A stretch of DNA of 63,593 nucleotides, filler included, from Licmophora abbreviata (Eukaryota), in assembly GCA_900291995.1 (NCBI GenBank). It is 17 parts of 17 records of this genome, joined end to end, with 100 filler letters (N's around TTAATTAATTAA, not from the genome) between each part and the next. Parts side by side here need not be neighbours in the genome. Positions count along the whole stretch, not along the records: positions 26,126 to 27,351 come from OLMU01004539.1; positions 27,452 to 28,724 come from OLMU01004540.1; 15 more parts are not named here. One strand, written 5' to 3'. Below, in pieces: positions 25,468-37,563 of this stretch (positions within the stretch are counted from its first letter, which is position 1; each line of letters starts with the position of its first letter). The translations under genes and the position numbers were made by a program. Below the pieces are notes generated by a model. That model had not been told where the DNA came from, made no database searches, and saw only the letters and a program-made list of their open reading frames with translations.

Positions 25468-25947
25468 CTATTCGTCTAGCGATCCGTGGATCGCAAATTG
25501 CTCGATCCCGGCATCCTGCGCTTCGATCACGCGAAACGTCTCGCGCACGCCCGACGGGGTCAGTTCCCGCGCCACGGTCAGCAGCGTGTTGGGGGGGTGA
25601 TCCTCGCACAGCTCGATCATATGGTCGAGCTCGGCCTCGGCCACGGGGCGGGCTGCCTCGGGGCTGGGGGCGCCATAGACATCGACGAAATGCCGCGCCA
25701 GCGCATCGGCGAGCGCGTCGCGCTCGGCCGGCTCGATCTGGGTGACGGCGACAAAGGTCACCCGGCCAAAGGTTTCCACCCCCAGCCAGCCATTGGAAAA
25801 CGCCTGTCGCGGCTTGCCGGTCAGATCGGCCTCGGACCAGTTCGAAAACTCGAACCCGCCCGCGACGCACCATTCCCCGGTGCGTGCCGGGCTTGCATAG
25901 ACACGCATGTCGCTTTCGTCGAAATGGATCGCACGGGCCAGTTTCAT
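25468..25947 (-). CDS. Conserved FDH-cluster accessory protein (DUF6505-like)
   Basis: LARAIHFDESD...GEWCVAGGFEF...KPRQAFSNGWLG; context. Confidence 0.7.
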   Translation of the reverse strand: MKLARAIHFDESDMRVYASPARTGEWCVAGGFEFSNWSEADLTGKPRQAFSNGWLGVETFGRVTFVAVTQIEPAERDALADALARHFVDVYGAPSPEAARPVAEAELDHMIELCEDHPPNTLLTVARELTPSGVRETFRVIEAQDAGIEQFAIHGSLDE

Positions 25948-26025
25948 GAGCTTTTCTCCAGAACGCTGCTCAGCGGGATGAGATGCGTTTTCGTGTCGTC
26001 GCGCAAGAGCATCCCGAAATTCTCG
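25944..26025 (-). CDS. 3' end of biotin/lipoate-ligase-like protein (DUF4444-type C-terminus); rest in gap
   Basis: ENFGMLLRDDTKTHLIPLSSVLEKSS*, with ATGA overlap to next gene. Confidence 0.6.
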
Positions 26026-26125
26026 NNNNNNNNNNNNNNNNNNNNNNNNNNNNNNNNNNNNNNNNNNNNTTAATTAATTAANNNNNNNNNNNNNNNNNNN
26101 NNNNNNNNNNNNNNNNNNNNNNNNN

Positions 26126-26654
26126 CGCCGTGATTGCGCATCGGCAGGATGGTCTTGCCATCGGGGCTGGCGGGGCGGCCCGAGACGCCCAGCATCCTTG
26201 GCTGGCTGGGGCCATAGACATCCGCATCCAGCAAACCGACGCGCCGCCCCTCGGCGGCCAGCGCACAGGCCAGATTGGCCGAGACGGTGGATTTGCCCAC
26301 GCCGCCCTTGCCGCTGGCGATGGCGATGATGTGATTGATGCCGGGCACGTGCTGCGGCCCTTGCGGTTCGGCCTTGCGCTGCGGCTTGAGATCGGGGGGC
26401 TGCTTGGCGGAATGCCCCGTCAGCACCGCCGAGACACTGGCCACCCCCGCGAGCGCTTTGACCGCAGCTTCGGCCTCGGCGCGCACCGTCTCGTAGATAT
26501 CGGCCTTTGCGGGGTCGATCTCGAGCACGAAACGCACGGTGTCGCCTTCGACGTTCAGCCCGCGCATCACGCCTGCCGATACGATATCCGAGCCGCTCAC
26601 GGGGTCATTGACCGCCTTCAGCGCCTCGAGAACGGTTTCTCTCGTCAGAGCCAC
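26126..26654 (-). CDS. mrp: Mrp/NBP35 (ApbC) Fe-S carrier ATPase, 5' part
   Basis: DUF59-like N-terminus, [20 protein letters not shown]. Confidence 0.92.
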
Positions 26655-26656
26655 GG

Positions 26657-26860
26657 TCAGCCTTGCCCCTTGATGATGCCGGTCACTTCGTGTTCGATAT
26701 CCAGCCCTTCGACTGTCAGAACCACGCGCGCCTTGAATTCCTTGCCTTCGAGATCGCCCGCCTCGCGCAGACCGTCCTCGATCGCCTGCTGCGAGGTGAC
26801 GCCCACCTGCTTGAGGAACTTGCGCATGGACATGTTGAAATCACCGATATCGTCGCTCAT
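26657..26860 (-). CDS. Small conserved protein (DUF6494-like)
   Basis: [29 protein letters not shown]; context. Confidence 0.7.
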
Positions 26861-26920
26861 TTCCGTCTCCCTCTCTCAAGAATGTTGACGCGGTGGGCCT
26901 TGGCTTTCTACCTTGGGCCC

Positions 26921-27750
26921 ATGCGTCGGCTCATTGTTTCATCCTGCCTTGCCCTGGCAAGCGTGCTTGGCCCCGTCACGGTCGCGGCGGCCGAGGATGT
27001 TCGGCTCGCCGTGCCACCGGCGCTGGTGGACTCGGGCCTGCTGGACTATGTGGTGCCGCGGTTCTCGTTGAAAACCGGGGTTCGGGTCGACATGGTCGGC
27101 GCGCAGGACAGCGCCGATCTGGCGCTGACCAACCAGACAGCGGGAACGCCCGTGTTTCAAGGGCCGAACGCCACATGGAGCCTGATGCGGCTGGATACCG
27201 GCAACGCGGATGCCGCGCGGTTTGCCGACTGGCTCACCGGCGAGATTGGCCGCCGCACGATCACCGCCTTCGAGATCGACGGAACCGCCCCCTTCAGCCT
27301 GCCACAAGAGGTCCGCGTCAAGGCGGTTGCCGTCACCTTTGACGGTGACGCNNNNNNNNNNNNNNNNNNNNNNNNNNNNNNNNNNNNNNNNNNNNTTAAT
27401 TAATTAANNNNNNNNNNNNNNNNNNNNNNNNNNNNNNNNNNNNNNNNNNNNAAATGTGCGGGCGCTGCCATGTGGTGATGGACGAAAAGCGGATGAACGA
27501 TATCGGCTCCGCGCCCTCGTTCTTCGTGCTGCGCGCCATGCGCGACTGGGACAGCCGGTTTCAGGGCTTTTTCGCGCTCAACCCGCATCCCGCCTTCACC
27601 CAGATCAAGGACGTGACCCCGCCCTTTCCCATCGACCGCCCATCGCCCATCGTGCCGGTCGAGATGGATCTCGACCAGCTCGAGGCGATCCTGGCCTATG
27701 TCTCGGATATCGAGCCGGCCGATCTGGGCGCGCCGATCGAACATCAGTGA
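26921..27750 (+). CDS. Exported c-type cytochrome with TupA-like N-terminal domain (interrupted by linker 27352-27451)
   Basis: Signal peptide; DSGLLDYVVPRF and ARFADWLTGEIG segments; CGRCH just after gap. Confidence 0.7.
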
Positions 27751-29744
27751 TCCCGGCGTTTGCTGAGATAATCGTCCGTCGTGCGCACCTGCGGGCGTTC
27801 GCCCCCGGCGAACGGGTTGTCCTTGGAATGGAACTGCGCCTGCACCCGGCAATTGTCGCACATCTGGATCATCCGCGCGGCCTTTTCGTTGGCGAACATC
27901 GCGTGCTTGCCGGCCAGTTTCTCGGTGATCCGCTCGACCGTTGATTTCACCCCGAAAAGCGCGCCGCATTCCACGCAGGCAAACGGCTCTTCCTCGTTCA
28001 GTACCACCTGCGTCATCGCCACATCGGCAAGGTTCAGGCGCCGCTCATAAGTGATCGCATCCTCGGGGCAGACATTCGCGCAGAGCCCGCATTGCAGGCA
28101 GGCATCCTCCTGAAACCGCAGCTGCGGCTTGTCGGGATGTTCCAGAAGCGCGCCTGACGGGCACAGCGACACGCAAGACAGGCACAGCGTGCAGGCATCG
28201 GTATCCACCAGAACCGCGCCATAGGGCGCATCCTCGGGCAGCGGCAGAACCGCATCGGGCGGGTTCAGCGACTTCGCGGCCATCCGGGCCACCTGTCGGC
28301 GGCTGCCCATCAGCAGCACGCTGTCCTCCACCGGCTGGGGCAGATCGCCCGGCGCATAGAGCGCCTCGCACATCGCATCCGGATCGTTCACATCCAGAAG
28401 CGCGATTTTTCCTTCACCGGCAATGGCTTGCGCCAACGGCACTTCACTGTCCAGCGCATCGCGCTCGGTCGTGGGGGCCAGCAGGATCGTGACATCCGCA
28501 AAGCCCGAGGCCAGCGCCGCCAGCATCTCGGCATGCCCAAACCCCGAGATCACGTCGATCTCCATCGGGATCACATCCGCTGGCAATCCGCGCCCATGCC
28601 GCGCCGCAAGCTGGATCATCTGCGTGCCGAACTCCCGGTCGCAGACCAGCAGGCGCGGGGCGATGCCCCCCGCCTTGCGATAAGCCGAGGCCAGCGTCTG
28701 AATGCGCCGGAACGTGGTGTCGGGNNNNNNNNNNNNNNNNNNNNNNNNNNNNNNNNNNNNNNNNNNNNTTAATTAATTAANNNNNNNNNNNNNNNNNNNN
28801 NNNNNNNNNNNNNNNNNNNNNNNNCCCGCACAGATCATCGGGTCGATGGTCACATGCTCGCCCGCCGGGCTGATCGCGCCCGTGGGGCAGATATCAAGGC
28901 AATTGCTGCAGCCGATCTTACCGGCCCGGCTATGGGCGCAGAGCAGCGGCTCCAGTGCCACGTAAAGCGGCTTTTCGAACGTGCCGATCATTTGCGCTGC
29001 GTTCAGCACCGCATCCGCCACCGCCGTGATGCTGCCGGGATCGGCGCGCAGATAACCTTCGCGCTTTTGCGGGGCTGGAAACAGCGCCGTGCCACCCGTC
29101 AGATCGAGGATCACGTCGCATTCGGTCACCGCGCCATCGCGCGGCTCGGTCCATGTCAGCGGGCCACGGCCTGCCGGGTTGACCTGCCGCAGCGCGTCGA
29201 TCTGCACGCGGAACTGGCCAAGGGCCCCCTGTGCGCTGCGCAAATTGCCCCGGATCACGTCGAAGTCGCGGCTTTCGGGCGGGTCGGTCTCGTCGGTCAC
29301 CAACACCGTCACGCCAAGGATCGGGGCCAGCTTGCGGCCTGCCTCTAGCGCCACATCCGACGCGCCGATCACAAGGCACAGCCCCTCCGAGACCACATCC
29401 AGCGTCTTTTCGGCGGGAACATTCAGCGTCGCATCGGCCATCAGCGCGGCCATTTTGGGTAGTTTGGAGCGCGGATCGTCGGACCATCCGGCCCGGTCGC
29501 GCAGGTCGGTGAAAGCGGGGTCAGGCGCCTCCGAATCGGCGGCCAGCTCCTCGAAGATCCGGCGCTCCTGCAGACAGCAAATCACCGCATCTCCGGCGGC
29601 GATTTCCTCGGCCGCGCGGTCCAGCTGCGTTGTGCACAGCCCTGAATGCACCTGCGAGCATGTCAGCCCGGTCGCCTGTTCCAATCCCTCTCGGTCGATC
29701 TCTTGGGTGCCGGAACAGTTACATAAAATCAATCGCTTAGCCAT
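27744..29744 (-). CDS. Multi-4Fe-4S ferredoxin-like protein of FDH cluster (interrupted by linker 28725-28824)
   Basis: CSNCLDICP, CTLCLSCVSLCP, CLQCGLCANVCP, CVECG, CDNC. Confidence 0.9.
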
Positions 29745-29991
29745 GTCGCTCGCTTTGACTGCCTCCCCATGCCAGACGCCTTCAGAGCGTTCGGCGAGCC
29801 ACAGATTACACATGATTCGCAGCCGTGGTAAACATCATTTACCAAAGCGGACCGACCGCGCATCGCGCCGCGAATCAGCCAAGTGATTCCCCAAGATGGT
29901 CCAGCCGGGCGCGCTTCGCCGACATGCGTAAGGGCCGCGTGGGGACTTTTTGTCCAATGCGGCAGTTTGCCTCTTTCACCGCTGCCCATTC

Positions 29992-30016: not shown

Positions 30017-30092
30017 ATGGAATGCAGATTTCGCTTTGAGTGGTCCGGAAACTGTACCAGTCTATGGGCTACCGAAACTGGGGAGGATCGGT

Positions 30093-30665
30093 GTGGTTCA
30101 CAATCCGTCGAGATACGCCAGCATGCCGCTTGGCGTCGTCATCCGGAAAACGCCGGGCGCGACCCGTTGGGCGGCCTGGGCCTGGAAAGCCGTGGCCGTG
30201 CTGCCCGGTGCCGGCCCGGCCGACTGGCGTGTCTTGCGCTCCGAAGGGGATGTGACCGAATACCATGCCGCGACACCGACGCTCGAGTTGCACGGCGCCG
30301 ACACCGATGCCTATGTGCACGGCCTCGCCGCTCAGGTGCCTTGCATCTACGTCGTGCTGCGCGCCACCGCGTCGACCGAAGGCCCGCCCTTCGAGGTGCT
30401 TCTGGTCACCGCCTCGCCCTATGAAGCGCAGGATTATTGCGACAGCGGCGAAGAGATCGTCGAAAAGGTCGCCATGCCCGAAGGCTTGCTGGCTTGGGTC
30501 AGCGAGTTCGTCGATACCCACCATGTCGAAGAGGAATTCAAGAAGCGCCGCCGCGACCGCGTCGATATCGACGTCGTCGAGGATGGTGTGGGCGATCCGC
30601 GTATTCACCAGATGCGCGATGTCTTCCGCTCGCCGGCGCTGCAGCGCAAGGGACGGATGCAATGA
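30093..30665 (+). CDS. DUF3305-family protein
   Basis: MPLGVVIR...TRW..W; VTASPYEAQDY; FKKRRRD; GGGAGG RBS before GTG 30093. Confidence 0.78.
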   Translation: MVHNPSRYASMPLGVVIRKTPGATRWAAWAWKAVAVLPGAGPADWRVLRSEGDVTEYHAATPTLELHGADTDAYVHGLAAQVPCIYVVLRATASTEGPPFEVLLVTASPYEAQDYCDSGEEIVEKVAMPEGLLAWVSEFVDTHHVEEEFKKRRRDRVDIDVVEDGVGDPRIHQMRDVFRSPALQRKGRMQ

Positions 30666-31342
30666 GCCGGGGTGATTTCTGGTCGCGCCGCAAGGCCAAG
30701 GTTCAGGCCGAGCAGGAGGCCGAGGCCCGCGCCGCCCTGGCCGCCGAAGAGGCCGCCCGCGAACAAGAGCTTGCCGAAAAGCCCGATGCCGAGATCCTCG
30801 AGGAACTGGGCCTGCCCGATCCCGACACGCTCGAGCCGGGCGCCGATTTCCGCGCCTTCATGCAAAAGGCCGTGCCCGACCGGATCCGCCGTCGCGCGTT
30901 GCGGCGGCTTTGGCTGTCCAACCCGGCGCTGGCCAATCTCGATGGCCTGATCGACTATGGCGAGGATTTCACCGACAGCGCCACCGTGCTCGAGAACCTG
31001 CAGACCGCCTATCAGGTGGGCAAGGGCATGATGGCCCATGTCGAGGAACTGGCCCGTCAGGCGGAAGAAAAATCCGCCGCCGAGTCTGACGCCGCCAACA
31101 TGGCCGACGCGACCGATGCCGCCACCGCCGAAGAGCCCGCCGAAAGCGCCGCGCAAACATATGCCGACACAGCACAGGCCGACACGGATCAAGACGACGA
31201 CCCCGATCATCACGGCGAGGCGTATGTCTGGCAAGAGACCGACCCCGAGCCTTCCGCCCCGCCGCGCCGCCGGTTGCGGTTTTCCTTCGATGACCGGGCG
31301 TCGGCCGGTCAGGGCTTTGACATGACGGGAGCACCACAGTGA
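30662..31342 (+). CDS. DUF3306-family protein
   Basis: FWSRRK, LPDPDTL, RRRALRRLW, LDGLIDYGEDFT. Confidence 0.8.
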   Translation: MSRGDFWSRRKAKVQAEQEAEARAALAAEEAAREQELAEKPDAEILEELGLPDPDTLEPGADFRAFMQKAVPDRIRRRALRRLWLSNPALANLDGLIDYGEDFTDSATVLENLQTAYQVGKGMMAHVEELARQAEEKSAAESDAANMADATDAATAEEPAESAAQTYADTAQADTDQDDDPDHHGEAYVWQETDPEPSAPPRRRLRFSFDDRASAGQGFDMTGAPQ

Positions 31343-31950
31343 CGGAGCAAGCAGCAGTGAGCCACGCCATCCTCGAAGAAGACCGGCTGCGCGCCGATCT
31401 GTACGACTATCTCGGCGTTCTGCTGGCCGGTCCGCCCAATCAGGGCCTGCTCGACCAGACCGCGCGCCTTTCTGGGGACGACACCGATCTGGGCACCGCC
31501 ATCGCCGCCCTGTCACGCATCGCGCGTCACACGCAGGAACCCGCCGTCGAACGCGAGTTCAACGCGCTGTTCATCGGTCTGGGCCGGGGCGAGCTTCTGC
31601 CCTATGCCAGCTATTACCTCACCGGGTTCTTGAACGAAAAACCGCTGGCCGCGCTGCGCCGCGATATGGCCGCGCGCGGCATGACCCGCGCCCCCAATGT
31701 CTACGAGCCCGAAGACAACATCGCCTCGCTGATGGAGATGATGGCCGGGCTGATCACCGGGCGTTTCGGCAAGCCCGCGTCGCTAGCCGAGCAAAAGACG
31801 TTCTACAACAAGCATATCGGCCCTTGGGCCGGGCATTTCTTCACGGATTTGGAGGCTGCAAAGAACTCGGTTCTCTATGCCTCGGTCGGCGCTGTCGGCC
31901 GGGTCTTCATTGAGATCGAGGCCCAAGGCTTCCGAATGAGCGCGGAGTGA
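31339..31950 (+). CDS. TorD/DmsD-family molybdoenzyme maturation chaperone
   Basis: LFIGLGRGELLPYASYY and EPEDNIA motifs. Confidence 0.88.
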   Translation: MTEQAAVSHAILEEDRLRADLYDYLGVLLAGPPNQGLLDQTARLSGDDTDLGTAIAALSRIARHTQEPAVEREFNALFIGLGRGELLPYASYYLTGFLNEKPLAALRRDMAARGMTRAPNVYEPEDNIASLMEMMAGLITGRFGKPASLAEQKTFYNKHIGPWAGHFFTDLEAAKNSVLYASVGAVGRVFIEIEAQGFRMSAE

Positions 31951-32000
31951 TCCGCATGACCCGGCGGGCAACCGCCACCACCAACGAGAGGAGGACTCTC

Positions 32001-32192
32001 ATGTCGAAGAAAACCGAGGATGGCGCCAGCCGTCGCGATTTTCTCAAACTGGCCGCCTCCGGCGCGCCCGCTGTTGCGGTCGTGACGGCAGTGACCGGTG
32101 GGCAGGCCGAAGCGGCCGAGCCCGATCTTGCATCCAGCCGGATTCAGGACACCGCGCATACCCGCGCCTATCTCGACTCTGCCCGGTTCTGA
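32001..32192 (+). CDS. Small twin-arginine protein (formate dehydrogenase region Tat target, 63 aa)
   Basis: SRRDFLK signal; C-terminal DTAHTRAYLDSARF; GAGGAGG RBS. Confidence 0.85.
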   Translation: MSKKTEDGASRRDFLKLAASGAPAVAVVTAVTGGQAEAAEPDLASSRIQDTAHTRAYLDSARF

Positions 32193-32426
32193 ACCGGACA
32201 AGGTCACCCATCCATGCCGGCGACTGGTTGCGTGACGCCCGACTGCCCNNNNNNNNNNNNNNNNNNNNNNNNNNNNNNNNNNNNNNNNNNNNTTAATTAA
32301 TTAANNNNNNNNNNNNNNNNNNNNNNNNNNNNNNNNNNNNNNNNNNNNGCGTGACGCCCGACTGCCCGGTGATCAACCTTAGTACCCAGCAAGCCCTTTG
32401 GGGTGCGCCCGGGAGGAGATGAAAAC

Positions 32427-34827
32427 ATGCTTAGGAAAAAGACCAACGGGGTTGCGAGACGCCCCCAGCGGACAAGTATCCTGTCTGAGGTCGCCGGGAA
32501 ATCCGTCGACCGCCGCGCGTTTCTGCGCGGCAGCGGTCTGGCCATCGGTGGCCTTGCCGCGATCGGTGCCATGGGTGGCACCGTCACGAAAGCCAGCGCC
32601 GCCACCGCGGCGCAAGGCGCGGTCCAGACCCTGAAATCGGTCTGCACCCATTGCTCGGTCGGCTGCACGGTCATCGCCGAAGTGCAGAACGGCGTCTGGA
32701 CGGGTCAAGAACCCGGCTGGGACAGCCCGTTCAACCTCGGTGCCCATTGCGCCAAGGGCGCATCGGTCCGTGAGCACGCGCATGGCGAACGTCGTCTCAA
32801 GTATCCGATGAAAAAAGAGAACGGCGAGTGGAAGCGCATCAGCTGGGAACAGGCGATCAACGAGATCGGCGACGGCATGATGCAGATCCGCGAAGAAAGC
32901 GGCCCCGACAGCGTCTATTGGCTGGGCTCCGCCAAGCATAACAACGAACAGGCCTACCTGTTCCGCAAGTTCGCGGCCTATTGGGGCACGAACAACGTGG
33001 ATCACCAGGCCCGGATCTGTCACTCGACCACCGTTGCGGGCGTTGCGAACACATGGGGCTACGGCGCCATGACCAACTCCTACAACGACATCCACAATTC
33101 CCAGGCGATCTTCATCATCGGCGGCAACCCTGCCGAGGCGCACCCCGTCTCGCTGCTGCACGTGCTGAAGGCCAAGGAACAGAACAACGCGCCTCTCATC
33201 GTCTGCGATCCGCGCTTCACCCGCACGGCCGCACATGCCGATGAATTTGTCCGGTTCCGTCCGGGCTCGGACGTGGCTCTGGTCTGGGGCATCCTGTGGC
33301 ACATCTTCGAGAATGGCTGGGAAGACAAGGAATTCATCCGCACCCGCGTGTGGGGGATGGACCAGATCAAGGAAGAAGTCGCCAAGTGGACCCCCGAAGA
33401 GGTCGAGCGCGTCACCGGCGCCCCCGGCAGCCAGCTTGAGCGCGTCGCGCGCACCCTGGCCAACAACCGTCCCGGCACCGTGATCTGGTGCATGGGCGGC
33501 ACGCAGCACACCAACGGCAACAACAACACCCGTGCCTACTGCATCCTGCAGCTTGCTCTTGGCAACATGGGTGTGTCGGGTGGCGGCACCAACATCTTCC
33601 GCGGCCATGACAACGTGCAGGGCGCGACTGACCTTGGTGTTCTGTCGCACACGCTGCCGGGCTATTACGGTCTGGCCGCAGGCTCGTGGGCACACTGGTC
33701 CCGCGTCTGGGGCGAAGATCCCGAATGGCTCGCGGCGCGCTTCGACAAGATCACCGGCAAGGACGGCAAGGAAAAATCCCTGCAGAACCTGTCGGGTATC
33801 CCTGTCAGCCGCTGGATCGACGGCGTGCTCGAAGACACCGAGAACATGGACCAGCCCAACAAGGTCCGTGCGATGGTGCTCTGGGGCCACGCGCCCAACT
33901 CGCAGACCCGCATGACCGAGATGAAGACGGCCATGGAGAAGCTCGACATGCTTGTCGTGGTCGATCCGTTCCCGACCGTCTCGGCCGTGCTGCATGACCG
34001 GACCGACGGCTGCTACCTGCTGCCGGCCACCACGCAGTTCGAAACCTACGGCTCGGTGACGGCGTCCAACCGCTCGATCCAGTGGCGCGAAAAGGTCATT
34101 GATCCCCTGTTCGAGTCCAAGACCGACCACGAGATCATCGGCCTCTTTGCCAAGAAGTTCGGCTATCATGACCGGATGTTCCGCAACATCCAGCTCGAAG
34201 CGGACGGCATCACGCCGAATATCGAGGACACCACCCGCGAGTTCAACCGCGGCATGTGGACCGTCGGCTATACCGGCCAGTCGCCCGAGCGTCTCAAGCT
34301 GCACATGGCCAACCAGCACACGTTCGACCGGACGACGCTGAAGGCTCTGGGTGGCCCCGCCGATGGCGACTATTACGGGATGCCCTGGCCTTGCTGGGGA
34401 ACACCGGAAATGCGTCACCCGGGCACGCCGAACCTCTATGACATGTCCAAGTCGGTGGCCGATGGCGGCCTGACCTTCCGCGCCCGTTTCGGCGTGGAGC
34501 GGGATGGCGAAAACCTGCTGGCCGAAGGCGTCTACTCGAAGGATTCGGAAATCCAGGACGGATATCCCGAATTCACCATGCAGATGCTGATGGATCTTGG
34601 CTGGGACGGTGACCTGACGGCGGACGAACGCGCCGCGATCGAAAAGGTCGCGGGCAGCGCCGACAAGGTGCCTGGCGTCAACTGGAAGACCGACCTTTCG
34701 GGCGGGATCCAGCGGGTTGCCATCGCACATGGCTGTGCGCCCTTCGGCAACGCCAAGGCTCGGACCGTGGTCTGGACCTTCCCAGATCCGGTGCCTCTGC
34801 ATCGCGAGCCGCTCTATACGAGCCGGC
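32427..34827 (+). CDS. fdhA: Periplasmic formate dehydrogenase alpha subunit (Mo/W-bis-PGD, Cys ligand); 3' end in gap
   Basis: Tat DRRAFLR, CTHCSVGC...HCAKG, active site DHQARICHST, RGHDNVQG. Confidence 0.95.
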
Positions 34828-34974
34828 NNNNNNNNNNNNNNNNNNNNNNNNNNNNNNNNNNNNNNNNNNNNTTAATTAATTAANNNNNNNNNNNNNNNNN
34901 NNNNNNNNNNNNNNNNNNNNNNNNNNNCTGCCCGACCTGACCATGATGGTTTCATTTGATACAGGACAGATCGC

Positions 34975-36198
34975 ATGACCCGGCTTCTGTACACGTTCCT
35001 TTTGTCTTTGCTGCTGGCCGCGCCGGTGTCCTCCGTGACCGCGCAACAGGCCACCGAGACACCCCAGATCGACCGCTCCGCCACGGGCGGCGCGCCTACT
35101 CTTGAAGATATTCTGGCCCGTCAGCGCGGCGAGGCCGTGGACAACAGCTGGCGCCGCAGCACTGATGACGGCAGCACCGAAGCCGCCTCGGGCGCTGGCC
35201 CTCTGGGCACGCTTGGCGGCATGTCCAATTCCGATGTCTGGCGCGATCTGCGCTTCAACGATGCCGACGTGAAGGTGTCCGCAGGCGGCCCCGTCGCCAA
35301 GGTTCTGGTGCAAGACAGCGGCATGGCCTGGCTGCAATTCCGCGAAGGTCCGCTGATCACCTATGGCGGTCTTGCGATGCTGGGCACGCTTGGTCTTCTG
35401 GTGATCTTCTACCTGATCCGCGGCAAGATCCGCATCGACGGCAAGAAATCCGGCCGCACCGTGACCCGCTTCGCCTTCATCGAACGGTTCGCGCATTGGC
35501 TGATGGCCGGCTCGTTCATCGTTCTGGGGATCACCGGGCTGATCACGCTGATGGGCCGCAAGTTCATCATTCCCACCTTCGGCCACGAGGCGTTCTCGAC
35601 CATGGCGATTGCGTCGAAATGGATCCACAACAACATTTCCTGGGCCTTCATGCTGGGGCTGGTGATGGCCTTCGTGCTGTGGGTCGCGCACAACATCCCC
35701 AACAAGACCGACCTGAAATGGCTGGCCGTGGGCGGCGGGATCTTCAAAAAGGGCGTTCACCCGCCTGCGCGCAAGTTCAATGCGGGCCAGAAGATGATCT
35801 TCTGGTCGGTCATCATCCTCGGTGCGTCGATCTCGGCCTCTGGCCTGTCGCTGCTCTTCCCGTTCGAGATGCCGATGTTCGCCAAGACCTTCGCGATCCT
35901 CAACGATACCGGCCTGCCGCAGATGGTGGGTCTGGGCGTGCTGCCCACCGACCTGCCGCCGCATCAGGAGATGCAGCTGGCCCAAGCTTGGCATGCCATC
36001 GTGAGCTTCGTGCTGATGGCGATCATCCTCGCGCATATCTATATCGGCTCGGTCGGTATGGAAGGCGCGTTCGATGCCATGGGCTCGGGCGAGGTCGAAG
36101 AGCAATGGGCGCGCGAGCACCATGGCCTGTGGCTCGAAGAGCTGCAGCAGAAAGGCCAGGCGCCCGCACCCGGCAAGGCGCCCACTCCCGCGGAATAA
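34975..36198 (+). CDS. fdhC: Formate dehydrogenase gamma subunit (cytochrome b) with periplasmic N-terminal extension
   Basis: ERFAHW, KWIHN, KFNAGQK, WHAI, AHIYIGS, WAREHH. Confidence 0.92.
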   Translation: MTRLLYTFLLSLLLAAPVSSVTAQQATETPQIDRSATGGAPTLEDILARQRGEAVDNSWRRSTDDGSTEAASGAGPLGTLGGMSNSDVWRDLRFNDADVKVSAGGPVAKVLVQDSGMAWLQFREGPLITYGGLAMLGTLGLLVIFYLIRGKIRIDGKKSGRTVTRFAFIERFAHWLMAGSFIVLGITGLITLMGRKFIIPTFGHEAFSTMAIASKWIHNNISWAFMLGLVMAFVLWVAHNIPNKTDLKWLAVGGGIFKKGVHPPARKFNAGQKMIFWSVIILGASISASGLSLLFPFEMPMFAKTFAILNDTGLPQMVGLGVLPTDLPPHQEMQLAQAWHAIVSFVLMAIILAHIYIGSVGMEGAFDAMGSGEVEEQWAREHHGLWLEELQQKGQAPAPGKAPTPAE

Positions 36199-36201
36199 GG
36201 G

Positions 36202-37563
36202 ATGCGCGCGCTGGTCTCAGGCCTGCTCATGTCTGTGCTGGCGGCCCTCCCGGCCGCCAGTCAGGACTTTACCACGCTCAAGGGCCATGGCGGCCCGATC
36301 ATGGGTGTGCAGGTCGATCCTGCGACGGGCCGGGTGATCTCGGGCAGCTTCGACAATTCCGTGGGGCTTTGGCAGGGGCGCGATCCCCGCTGGCTCGAAG
36401 CGCATGACGCCGCCGTGAACACGGTGCTNNNNNNNNNNNNNNNNNNNNNNNNNNNNNNNNNNNNNNNNNNNNTTAATTAATTAANNNNNNNNNNNNNNNN
36501 NNNNNNNNNNNNNNNNNNNNNNNNNNNNGCAAGCCGCCTGACCGGGCATCAGGGCAAGGTTGCGGGGCTGTCGGTCTCGCCGGATGGCGCCCTTCTGGCC
36601 TCGGCCAGTTGGGACGGCTCCATCGGGCTCTGGCCGCTTGTCGCGCCTGACGATGCGCCGCGCTTCTTGCAGGGCCATGGCTCGGGGGTGAATGCCGTGA
36701 CCTTCGCCTCGGACGGCGCGCGGCTCTTCTCGGCCTCCGCCGATGGTACGATCCGCGTCTGGGATGTGGCCTCGGGCGAGGACCGGGTGCTGACCAATCA
36801 GGGCTTCGGCGTGAACCGGCTGGTGCTGGGTCCGAATGATGCCTGGCTGGCCTATGGCGCGGTCGATGGCGTCACACGGGTGATCGACCCGGTCAGCGGG
36901 GAGCAACTCCATGATTTCTCGCTCGAGCGGCGCCCGGTGCTGGCAATGGCGCATCACGCGGCGACCAGCCAAATGGCGGTGGGCGACGGGCATGGCTATA
37001 TCATGATGATCGACACCGACGCTTGGCGCATCACTCGCGATTTCCGCGCCATGCAGCGCGGCCCGGTCTGGGCGTTGGATTTCTCCGCCGACGGGGCCTC
37101 GATCCTGGCGGGCGGGCTGGATGAGGTGGTTTATTCCTGGCCCGTTGCCCTGCTCGATGAATTCGATCCCGCCGGAAGCTCTCAGCGGCAAAGCTTCCTG
37201 CGCGATCCTGAAACCATGCCCAATGGTGAGCGGCAGTTCATGCGCAAATGCTCGATCTGCCACGCGCTGACCCCGCCGCCCTCGCGCAAGGCGGGGCCGA
37301 CGCTTTATGATCTTTTCGGCCGCAAGGCCGGGGCGATCGCGGATTATCCCTATTCCGACATCCTTGCCACATCGGACATCATCTGGTCCGACGACACCAT
37401 CGACGCCCTGTTCGACATGGGCCCCGACCACTACATACCAGGGTCCAGGATGCCGATGCAGGTCATCCGGGCCGAAACAGACCGCCAGGACCTGATCGCC
37501 TTCCTTCGTACGGCGACGGCTCCGGATACGGCCCCAGAGGCGGCCCCAATCAAGGAGAACTGA
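36202..37563 (+). CDS. Exported WD40 beta-propeller fused to class I cytochrome c (interrupted by linker 36429-36528)
   Basis: Signal peptide; GH...SGSFD, ASASWDG, SASADGTIRVWD repeats; CSICH, GPTL, PGSRMP. Confidence 0.85.

Follow-up and report, generated by a model that had tools for sequence, protein, structure and literature searches.

The window that we analysed is a 63,593-nucleotide stretch of DNA, filler included, from the Licmophora abbreviata assembly GCA_900291995.1. It contains a plus-strand gene whose predicted product carries a signal peptide, one half of a tungstate-binding protein of the TupA type and a monohaem cytochrome c, and which lies close to genes for a formate dehydrogenase (FDH). 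The following features were recognised in and around this gene.

26921..27750, plus strand: whole fusion gene (signal peptide, TupA lobe A, linker, monohaem cytochrome c), with an intact orthologue of 251 aa
26921..26992, plus strand: predicted Sec-type signal peptide, about aa 1-24, with a basic start, hydrophobic core and AxA end (sequence, hydropathy)
26993..27307, plus strand: domain modelled as TupA lobe A, aa 25-129, with the N- and C-terminal segments of TupA joined by a short hairpin (structure alignment, profile)
27011..27022, plus strand: VPPA in the position of the TTTS oxyanion motif
27056..27073, plus strand: PRFSLK hallmark, aa 46-51
27352..27451, no strand: artificial contig joint within codons 144-153, replacing 26 nt (joint sequence, orthologue comparison)
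27457..27471, plus strand: CGRCH haem-attachment motif with C155, C158 and H159 (sequence, alignments)
27586..27588, plus strand: His198, predicted sixth haem ligand, in P-H-P-A-F (conservation, Met register)
27598..27657, plus strand: proline-rich insertion of about 19 residues, missing from the shortest relatives (alignment)
27715..27750, plus strand: C-terminal PADLGAP tail and stop; the final 7 nt are shared with the end of the ferredoxin gene on the other strand (sequence)
26657..26860, minus strand: DUF6494 gene, first of DUF6494-Mrp/ApbC-BPL-like-DUF6505, divergent from the fusion gene and 60 bp away
27744..29813, minus strand: gene for a large poly-[4Fe-4S] protein (poly-ferredoxin), convergent, interrupted by another joint
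30069..32192, plus strand: DUF3305, DUF3306, TorD-type chaperone and small Tat-signal ORF
32403..36198, plus strand: fdhA with a Tat-type signal, and the cytochrome b gene fdhC; a joint has removed the 3' end of fdhA together with fdhB
36202..37563, plus strand: fusion of WD40 repeats and cytochrome c with a conventional Met motif, interrupted by a joint

The window reads DUF6505, BPL-like, Mrp and DUF6494 on the minus strand, the fusion gene on the plus strand, the poly-ferredoxin gene on the minus strand, and then an fdh block of DUF3305, DUF3306, TorD, the small Tat ORF, fdhA, fdhB (in the joint), fdhC, the WD40-cytochrome and a sigma-54 regulator. The order that flanks the fusion gene recurs with small losses in the fused loci that we mapped. 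The gene lies antisense between the poly-ferredoxin gene and the DUF6494-Mrp-BPL-DUF6505 group (26657-29813); its stop-codon overlap with the poly-ferredoxin gene is 7 nt in 33 of the 41 loci measured, and where it is absent the flanking poly-ferredoxin and DUF6494 genes are adjacent and co-directional. A non-contiguous operon with antisense read-through is possible at this locus, where a scan for promoters and terminators gave nothing above chance. DUF6505, BPL-like/DUF4444, Mrp and DUF6494 (25468-26860) accompany FDH in nearly all loci read, and are candidates for cofactor or Fe-S maturation factors. A regulator-type gene with HTH_17 and PBP_like domains sits between an unfused cytochrome and tupBCA at another locus (L172:6433-7425).

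Since the open reading frame starts at 26921 and runs into the joint, and its second half begins at the very start of its own contig, we asked how the two halves belong together. The block at 27352-27451 consists of 44 N, a 12-nt linker with stops in all frames and another 44 N, and is one of 16 identical joints across the window, which identifies it as an assembly spacer. The closest orthologue, from Roseovarius litoreus (L001), is an uninterrupted 251-aa ORF with 97% identity over residues 1-143, and by comparison with it the halves are in frame across the joint, with 26 nt replaced. Contigs from two unrelated DNA runs (X2 record 13 and X3 record 17) span the whole gene without a gap. The single orthologous ORF and the two DNA runs establish that the fusion of lobe and cytochrome is real and not a gap artefact; separate genes, or a frameshift at the gap, are ruled out by the L001 ORF, the kept frame and the gap-free contigs. 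The original prediction, which had drawn one gene across the gap, was right in this, and the motifs it quoted all occur where it placed them, with 34 residues between G60 and N95.

A genome search with the N-terminal half returned 21 loci, of which 10 are orthologues of the Rhodobacteraceae type and 11 match the N-terminal segment weakly; 10 of these 11 were translated, and all 10 are ordinary TupA genes. Among longer proteins, the same half found 71 matches of 252-291 aa, all with the invariant CxxCH and a C-terminal His. In the one pair that we compared (L001 and L002), dN/dS is 0.21 for the lobe and 0.15 for the cytochrome, values that point to purifying selection on both domains. The RNA runs contained only distant relatives as contigs, and expression of the gene itself was not seen in them. 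The contigs of the window are joined by the fixed 100-nt spacer in the order of the R. litoreus locus where the two were compared. The sequence hidden by single joints ranges from 26 nt to about 1.2 kb, the longest stretch being the end of fdhA and fdhB. The source assembly has 29 Mb in 7734 contigs, a size well beyond that of a single Roseovarius genome, so that DNA of several organisms is probably included.

The N-terminal domain had been proposed to be a one-lobe TupA relic, with TTTS replaced by VPPA and the middle lobe missing, and both sequence profiles and models agree with this proposal. With a profile built from 73 full-length family members, the five best sequence matches in the PDB are of the TupA type and cover both TupA ends (best E 2e-7). 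The NCBIfam TupA model (NF041772) is touched weakly by 65 of the 73 (E <= 1, best 1e-6), far below its cut-off, which is not reached (19.4 bits against 400 bits). An AlphaFold model of the full-length protein has a mean pLDDT of 86.7 and a pTM of 0.60, the latter a sign of low confidence for domain orientation. Alignment by VIA places residues 25-129 on residues 3-250 of Desulfovibrio alaskensis TupA (5my5) with Z 15.3 and an rmsd of 1.8 A over 105 aligned residues, and in the ranking TupA comes first, followed by a TupA-like protein at 13.4, with ModA at 12.0 or less. Foldseek alone gave no match at E <= 0.001 for the full-length or the cytochrome-domain model. In passages of PMC5517513, lobe A of TupA is made up of residues 2-76 and 201-251 and contains TTTS and His59; R118, T124 and D170 face them from lobe B. 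The model aligns to lobe A residues only, so the domain, as modelled, is lobe A of TupA alone and has the PBP2 fold.

Relative to P0116, a 393-aa metagenomic protein in which a complete TupA with TTTS and lobe B is fused to the cytochrome of this family, and to TupA itself, about 138 residues are missing; lobe B is absent and there is no two-lobe binding cleft. TTS or TTT is kept in 0 of 310 fused sequences, a set that was filtered on other motifs, and the position equivalent to His59 is unconserved. Judged from these substitutions, the anion site appears to be lost, and we predict no oxyanion binding by the one-lobe protein. A different part of the lobe is strongly conserved. The patch P46-R47-F48-x-L50-K51 is fixed in 73 of 73 members, and R47 and F48 never vary across 146 sequences with identities as low as 28% (a set pre-filtered for the motif, with which the unfiltered 73 agree). 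Among 146 TupA-type sequences the R/L/K triad occurs once, in P0116. R47, L50, K51 and I109 form a conserved face that is new to the lobe.

The C-terminal domain retains the basic features of a class I cytochrome c, namely a single CxxCH near the N-terminus of the domain, a fold of N- and C-helices and a covariation coupling between L150 and I232, and we assign it to an unnamed subfamily of that class. Modelled alone with 108 sequences it reaches a pLDDT of 95. Its structural matches to class I cytochromes are moderate (best Z 7.1-7.4, 80 residues aligned at 2.4 A); all 50 matches listed are c-type haem proteins or complexes, with Z <= 7.4. PF00034 is touched by 69 of the 73 members at E <= 1, and three fused members that were scanned fall below the Pfam cut-off. 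As the original prediction held, the product would be a periplasmic c-type cytochrome, with covalent haem and export suggested by the CxxCH motif and the signal peptide.

The same prediction had found no distal Met and had called the haem possibly atypical. A conserved Met is indeed absent, but an invariant distal His had been overlooked. In the 108-sequence alignment the invariant columns are C155, C158, H159, P174, S175, P197 and H198, and a His follows CxxCH by 38-40 residues in 108 of 108; neither this alignment nor that of the 73 members (73/73) was filtered for His. In three short relatives the His stands 18 residues before the aromatic residue of the C-helix, and in 11 conventional class I domains (picked by pattern from 30 loci in five genomes) the Met stands 17-20 residues before it, with a mode of 18. 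His198 is both invariant and in the Met register, which makes His/His ligation (H159/H198) most likely and an atypical haem the expected outcome. The proline-rich segment is also present, only that it is not a tail, as had been described, but an insertion of about 19 residues after His198; the shortest relatives, with 87-95 aa in the mature form, lack it. The actual tail, PADLGAP, is found in 248 of 264 fused and 12 of 50 unfused forms. Proteins of the SHP/cytochrome c'' family have His/Asn or His/His ligation; SHP-type proteins are not among the matches listed for the cytochrome domain, a listing that does not exclude kinship.

To place the gene in its genomic context, we used an even sample of 251 genomes of the roseobacter family, with a cytochrome match threshold of E < 1e-40. 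The gene occurs in 85 (82 fused, 3 unfused), fdhC in 113, TupA in 166 and the WD40-cytochrome in 85. A tie to a Mo/W formate dehydrogenase had been suggested and is borne out: fdhC is found in 84 of the 85 carriers against 29 of the 166 other genomes (raw counts, which ignore kinship). The gene and fdhC share a contig in 68 genomes, where they are always 7.6-11.2 kb apart (usually about 9 kb), and lie on different contigs in 16. In the single carrier with no fdhC match (G088), fdhA adjoins the gene on a short contig. In a class-level sample of 401 genomes there are 16 carriers (3 fused, 13 unfused), all 16 with fdhC, against 57 of 401 overall (kinship uncorrected; one of the 57 genomes, G462, is unpublished). 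Six of these 13 unfused genes are in or beside an fdh/tup cluster, and the other 7 are not within the DNA read, some of them being on short contigs. We also read 20 of the 29 loci with fdhC only, and 11 have an identical architecture from which the fusion gene is cleanly absent.

TupA is present in all 85 carriers and in 112 of the 113 fdhC genomes, and tupA lies within 20.5 kb of the gene in 39 of the 79 carriers with a listed position; the neighbouring FDH is therefore probably tungsten-dependent. Co-location of tup genes with W enzymes is noted in a passage of PMC13197769. The fusion protein is not a replacement for TupA, as an intact TupA occurs in its own assembly and in 85 of 85 carriers. 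The WD40-cytochrome that follows fdhC (36202-37563) was matched in 85 genomes, all of which also carry fdhC, and a full-text literature search turned up no paper in which the four terms for it occur together. It occurs in 70 of the 85 carriers and 15 of the 29 fdhC-only genomes (kinship uncorrected). A strict partnership between it and the fusion protein is rejected, given that 15 of the 85 carriers have no match.

We hold with moderate confidence that the protein is an optional periplasmic electron carrier for the neighbouring FdhABC formate dehydrogenase, in which the lobe acts as a cap or docking domain. On this reading the protein is a soluble monohaem cytochrome c of class I, located in the periplasm and ligated by two His residues (H159/H198), that would serve the Tat-exported FdhABC as an accessory electron acceptor or shuttle. 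It would take electrons from FdhAB or FdhC and hand them on to a carrier of higher potential, for example the His/Met WD40-cytochrome encoded in the same cluster, along a path parallel to the quinone route. Lobe A would have been captured by fusion with a copy of tupA and, no longer binding oxyanions, kept as a cap or docking domain through its R47/L50/K51/I109 face. Counting against a carrier role, the gene is dispensable, as the 11 inspected genomes with the same cluster lack it, and FdhC already offers a quinone route; the link to the WD40-cytochrome is also loose, and several lineages have lost the lobe again. Mean-field covariation over 310 sequences (effective number 231) recovered the expected contacts within domains. 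Between lobe and cytochrome, the couplings 98-224, 109-151, 106-222 and 107-232 reach z 4.4-5.9; the highest values in six permutations, controls that remove shared ancestry, were 2.8-4.0. This weak covariation hints that the conserved lobe face may pack on the N- and C-helices of its own cytochrome rather than on FDH.

An unlikely alternative is that the cytochrome protects or reactivates the periplasmic W/Mo FDH, by electron buffering, oxygen scavenging or reductive activation after export, instead of carrying electrons in turnover. The gene is optional, it lies outside the fdhABC run in the company of genes with putative accessory or maturation roles (Mrp, poly-ferredoxin, DUF6494, DUF6505, DUF3305/3306, TorD), and its hosts are largely aerobic, all of which would suit such a role. 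It fits less well with some unfused cytochromes, which lie directly behind fdhABC and the WD40-cytochrome on the same strand (L167, L172), and with the chemistry of a six-coordinate His/His haem, which does not bind O2 without ligand exchange.

We give slightly less credence to the view that the lobe is a relic of the fusion which only stabilises the cytochrome and binds no partner, the cytochrome doing the job of its unfused relatives. Unfused forms are basal and arise again within the fused clade, the lobe varies more than the cytochrome, and the strongest lobe-cytochrome couplings would use up the conserved face. Against this stand the retention of the lobe in 82 of the 85 family carriers, the invariance of R47 and F48, and the fact that two of the three unfused forms of the family sample are not near fdh genes in the 12-16 kb read.

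A sensing role, which the original prediction had offered beside docking, is not supported, as the cleft residues are variable. In its fullest form, the cytochrome replaces lobe B and closes a new cleft for a ligand (tungstate or formate), which shifts the haem potential or signals to the nearby sigma-54 two-component system. We judge this improbable: the half-cleft fold is intact and the window has a sigma-54 response regulator after the cluster, yet the regulator is also present in 6 of 11 inspected loci that lack the gene, the cleft positions vary (TTTS and the His equivalent alike), and the couplings point to the face of helix 96-116 and not to the TTTS motif, with 34-150 and 31-188 as exceptions. 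Least probable is a lobe that has kept its docking to the TupBC permease, or that delivers metal, and so couples tungstate import to the periplasmic redox state; the constant presence and frequent nearness of tupA and the full fusion with an intact site in P0116 speak for it, but the gene tracks FDH and not Tup (of 54 tupA-positive, fdhC-negative genomes just G088, with its fragmented fdh locus, has it), the conserved face is unlike that of TupA, and both lobes of TupA are suggested to contact TupB in a passage of PMC5517513.

The origin of the lobe may be read from the intermediate forms. P0116, a one-member cluster on one 6.7-kb contig, carries the PRFxLK of the family between TupA-type segments, which is not expected of a simple two-part chimera. 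We found no second full TupA-cytochrome fusion among the best 120 rows of two protein searches (one of them limited to 8000 candidates, most of the room being taken by TupA), in 80 metagenome loci (where matches end at or near the TupA end) or among 150 listed of 923 profile matches. One-lobe members have 50-93 residues between the two TupA segments, against 196 in P0116, and the longer ones keep a helix that is missing from the protein of the window. In cytochrome trees (111 columns; the second without the nested unfused rows), unfused forms without the tail branch off outside the fused clade (SH-aLRT 83-84) and some unfused forms nest inside it, so that the lobe was lost again in several lineages. 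Quick trees nest P0116 weakly among one-lobe forms (SH-aLRT 81-92), while its placement as the sister group of every one-lobe form survives an AU test (p-AU 0.30).

The full fusion and the graded deletions suggest that fusion came first and lobe loss second. The simplest history would start from an FDH-linked unfused cytochrome that fused with a neighbouring copy of tupA, lost lobe B once or several times, and occasionally lost the rest; as an alternative, P0116 regained lobe B by recombination. A more ambitious account, unlikely as a whole, is that a His/His family serving alphaproteobacterial W-FDH fused once with a whole TupA, that the resulting tungstate-binding cytochrome (P0116) coupled metal supply to FDH redox, and that stepwise loss of lobe B left a docking module in a quinone-independent, two-cytochrome wire from formate to cytochrome c, found in about a third of roseobacter-family genomes.

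In summary, many marine roseobacters carry a predicted haem protein made of half a tungstate-uptake protein and an unusual cytochrome, beside a formate-oxidising enzyme. Its parts belong to known kinds, and what appears undescribed is their combination and the His/His family. Family proteins are named 'hypothetical protein' or 'c-type cytochrome' in databases, no family model reached its cut-off for the fusion protein, and we found no description of the family in the full-text literature searched (titles, abstract starts and passages, with few subscription journals). Passages of PMC6147048 cover cytochrome fusions to molybdoenzymes and not to TupA, and those of PMC3227643 and PMC8808070 give general context only for periplasmic FDHs and their cytochrome partners. 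The protein is a candidate for the missing redox partner of an FDH that is encoded by 113 of the 251 genomes sampled from this abundant marine family; W/Mo FDHs attract interest as CO2-reducing enzymes, a use for which natural soluble partners would be helpful. It also illustrates how a binding protein with two lobes was reduced in nature to a single folded lobe and put to a new use; unfused, fully fused and trimmed stages can all still be found.

Compared with class I monohaem cytochromes (PF00034; c6, SoxX, SorU, Kustd1711), the C-terminal domain shares CxxCH after the N-helix and the crossing C-helix, and differs in the His at the sixth-ligand register, the 19-residue proline-rich insertion, the extra tail and the lack of a close solved relative. 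With MtoD (4xxl; Z 5.2) it has in common a monohaem class I fold with predicted His/His ligation. MtoD, described in a passage of PMC4412085 as a bis-His class I cytochrome shuttle and so a precedent for the proposed role, may sit at +155 mV, so by analogy bis-His ligation of the present haem need not mean a very low redox potential. Cyanobacterial c549 is the top, weak sequence match of the profile of unfused forms (E 0.0095), and its ligand His falls in a different alignment column from that of our family. MtoD and c549/c550 are below 20% identity and belong to other pathways, so these likenesses are analogies, not membership.

With TupA (NF041772, 5my5) the protein shares the lobe A fold, sequence at both ends, a signal peptide and often a gene cluster; it is not a TupA member, having lost lobe B, TTTS and the His59 equivalent and gained the PRFxLK face and a cytochrome. 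At the level of the locus, the periplasmic FdhABC cluster with its TorD, DUF3305/DUF3306 and ferredoxin genes has the composition of the dmsD/torD-fdhGHI type of operon described in passages of PMC4464133. Those passages do not mention c-type cytochromes for this type, and relative to them the lobe-cytochrome and the WD40-cytochrome are additions in Alphaproteobacteria. Finally, ESM Atlas clusters of 78-85 proteins from Acidobacteriota and Planctomycetota join TupA/ModA-like and cytochrome c domains in one chain (PBP_like_2 or SBP_bac_11 with cytochrome c; feature scores 0.91-0.92 to P0116). These proteins are larger (523-597 aa), have several domains and carry automatic names only; they suggest that fusions of binding proteins with cytochromes c arose more than once.
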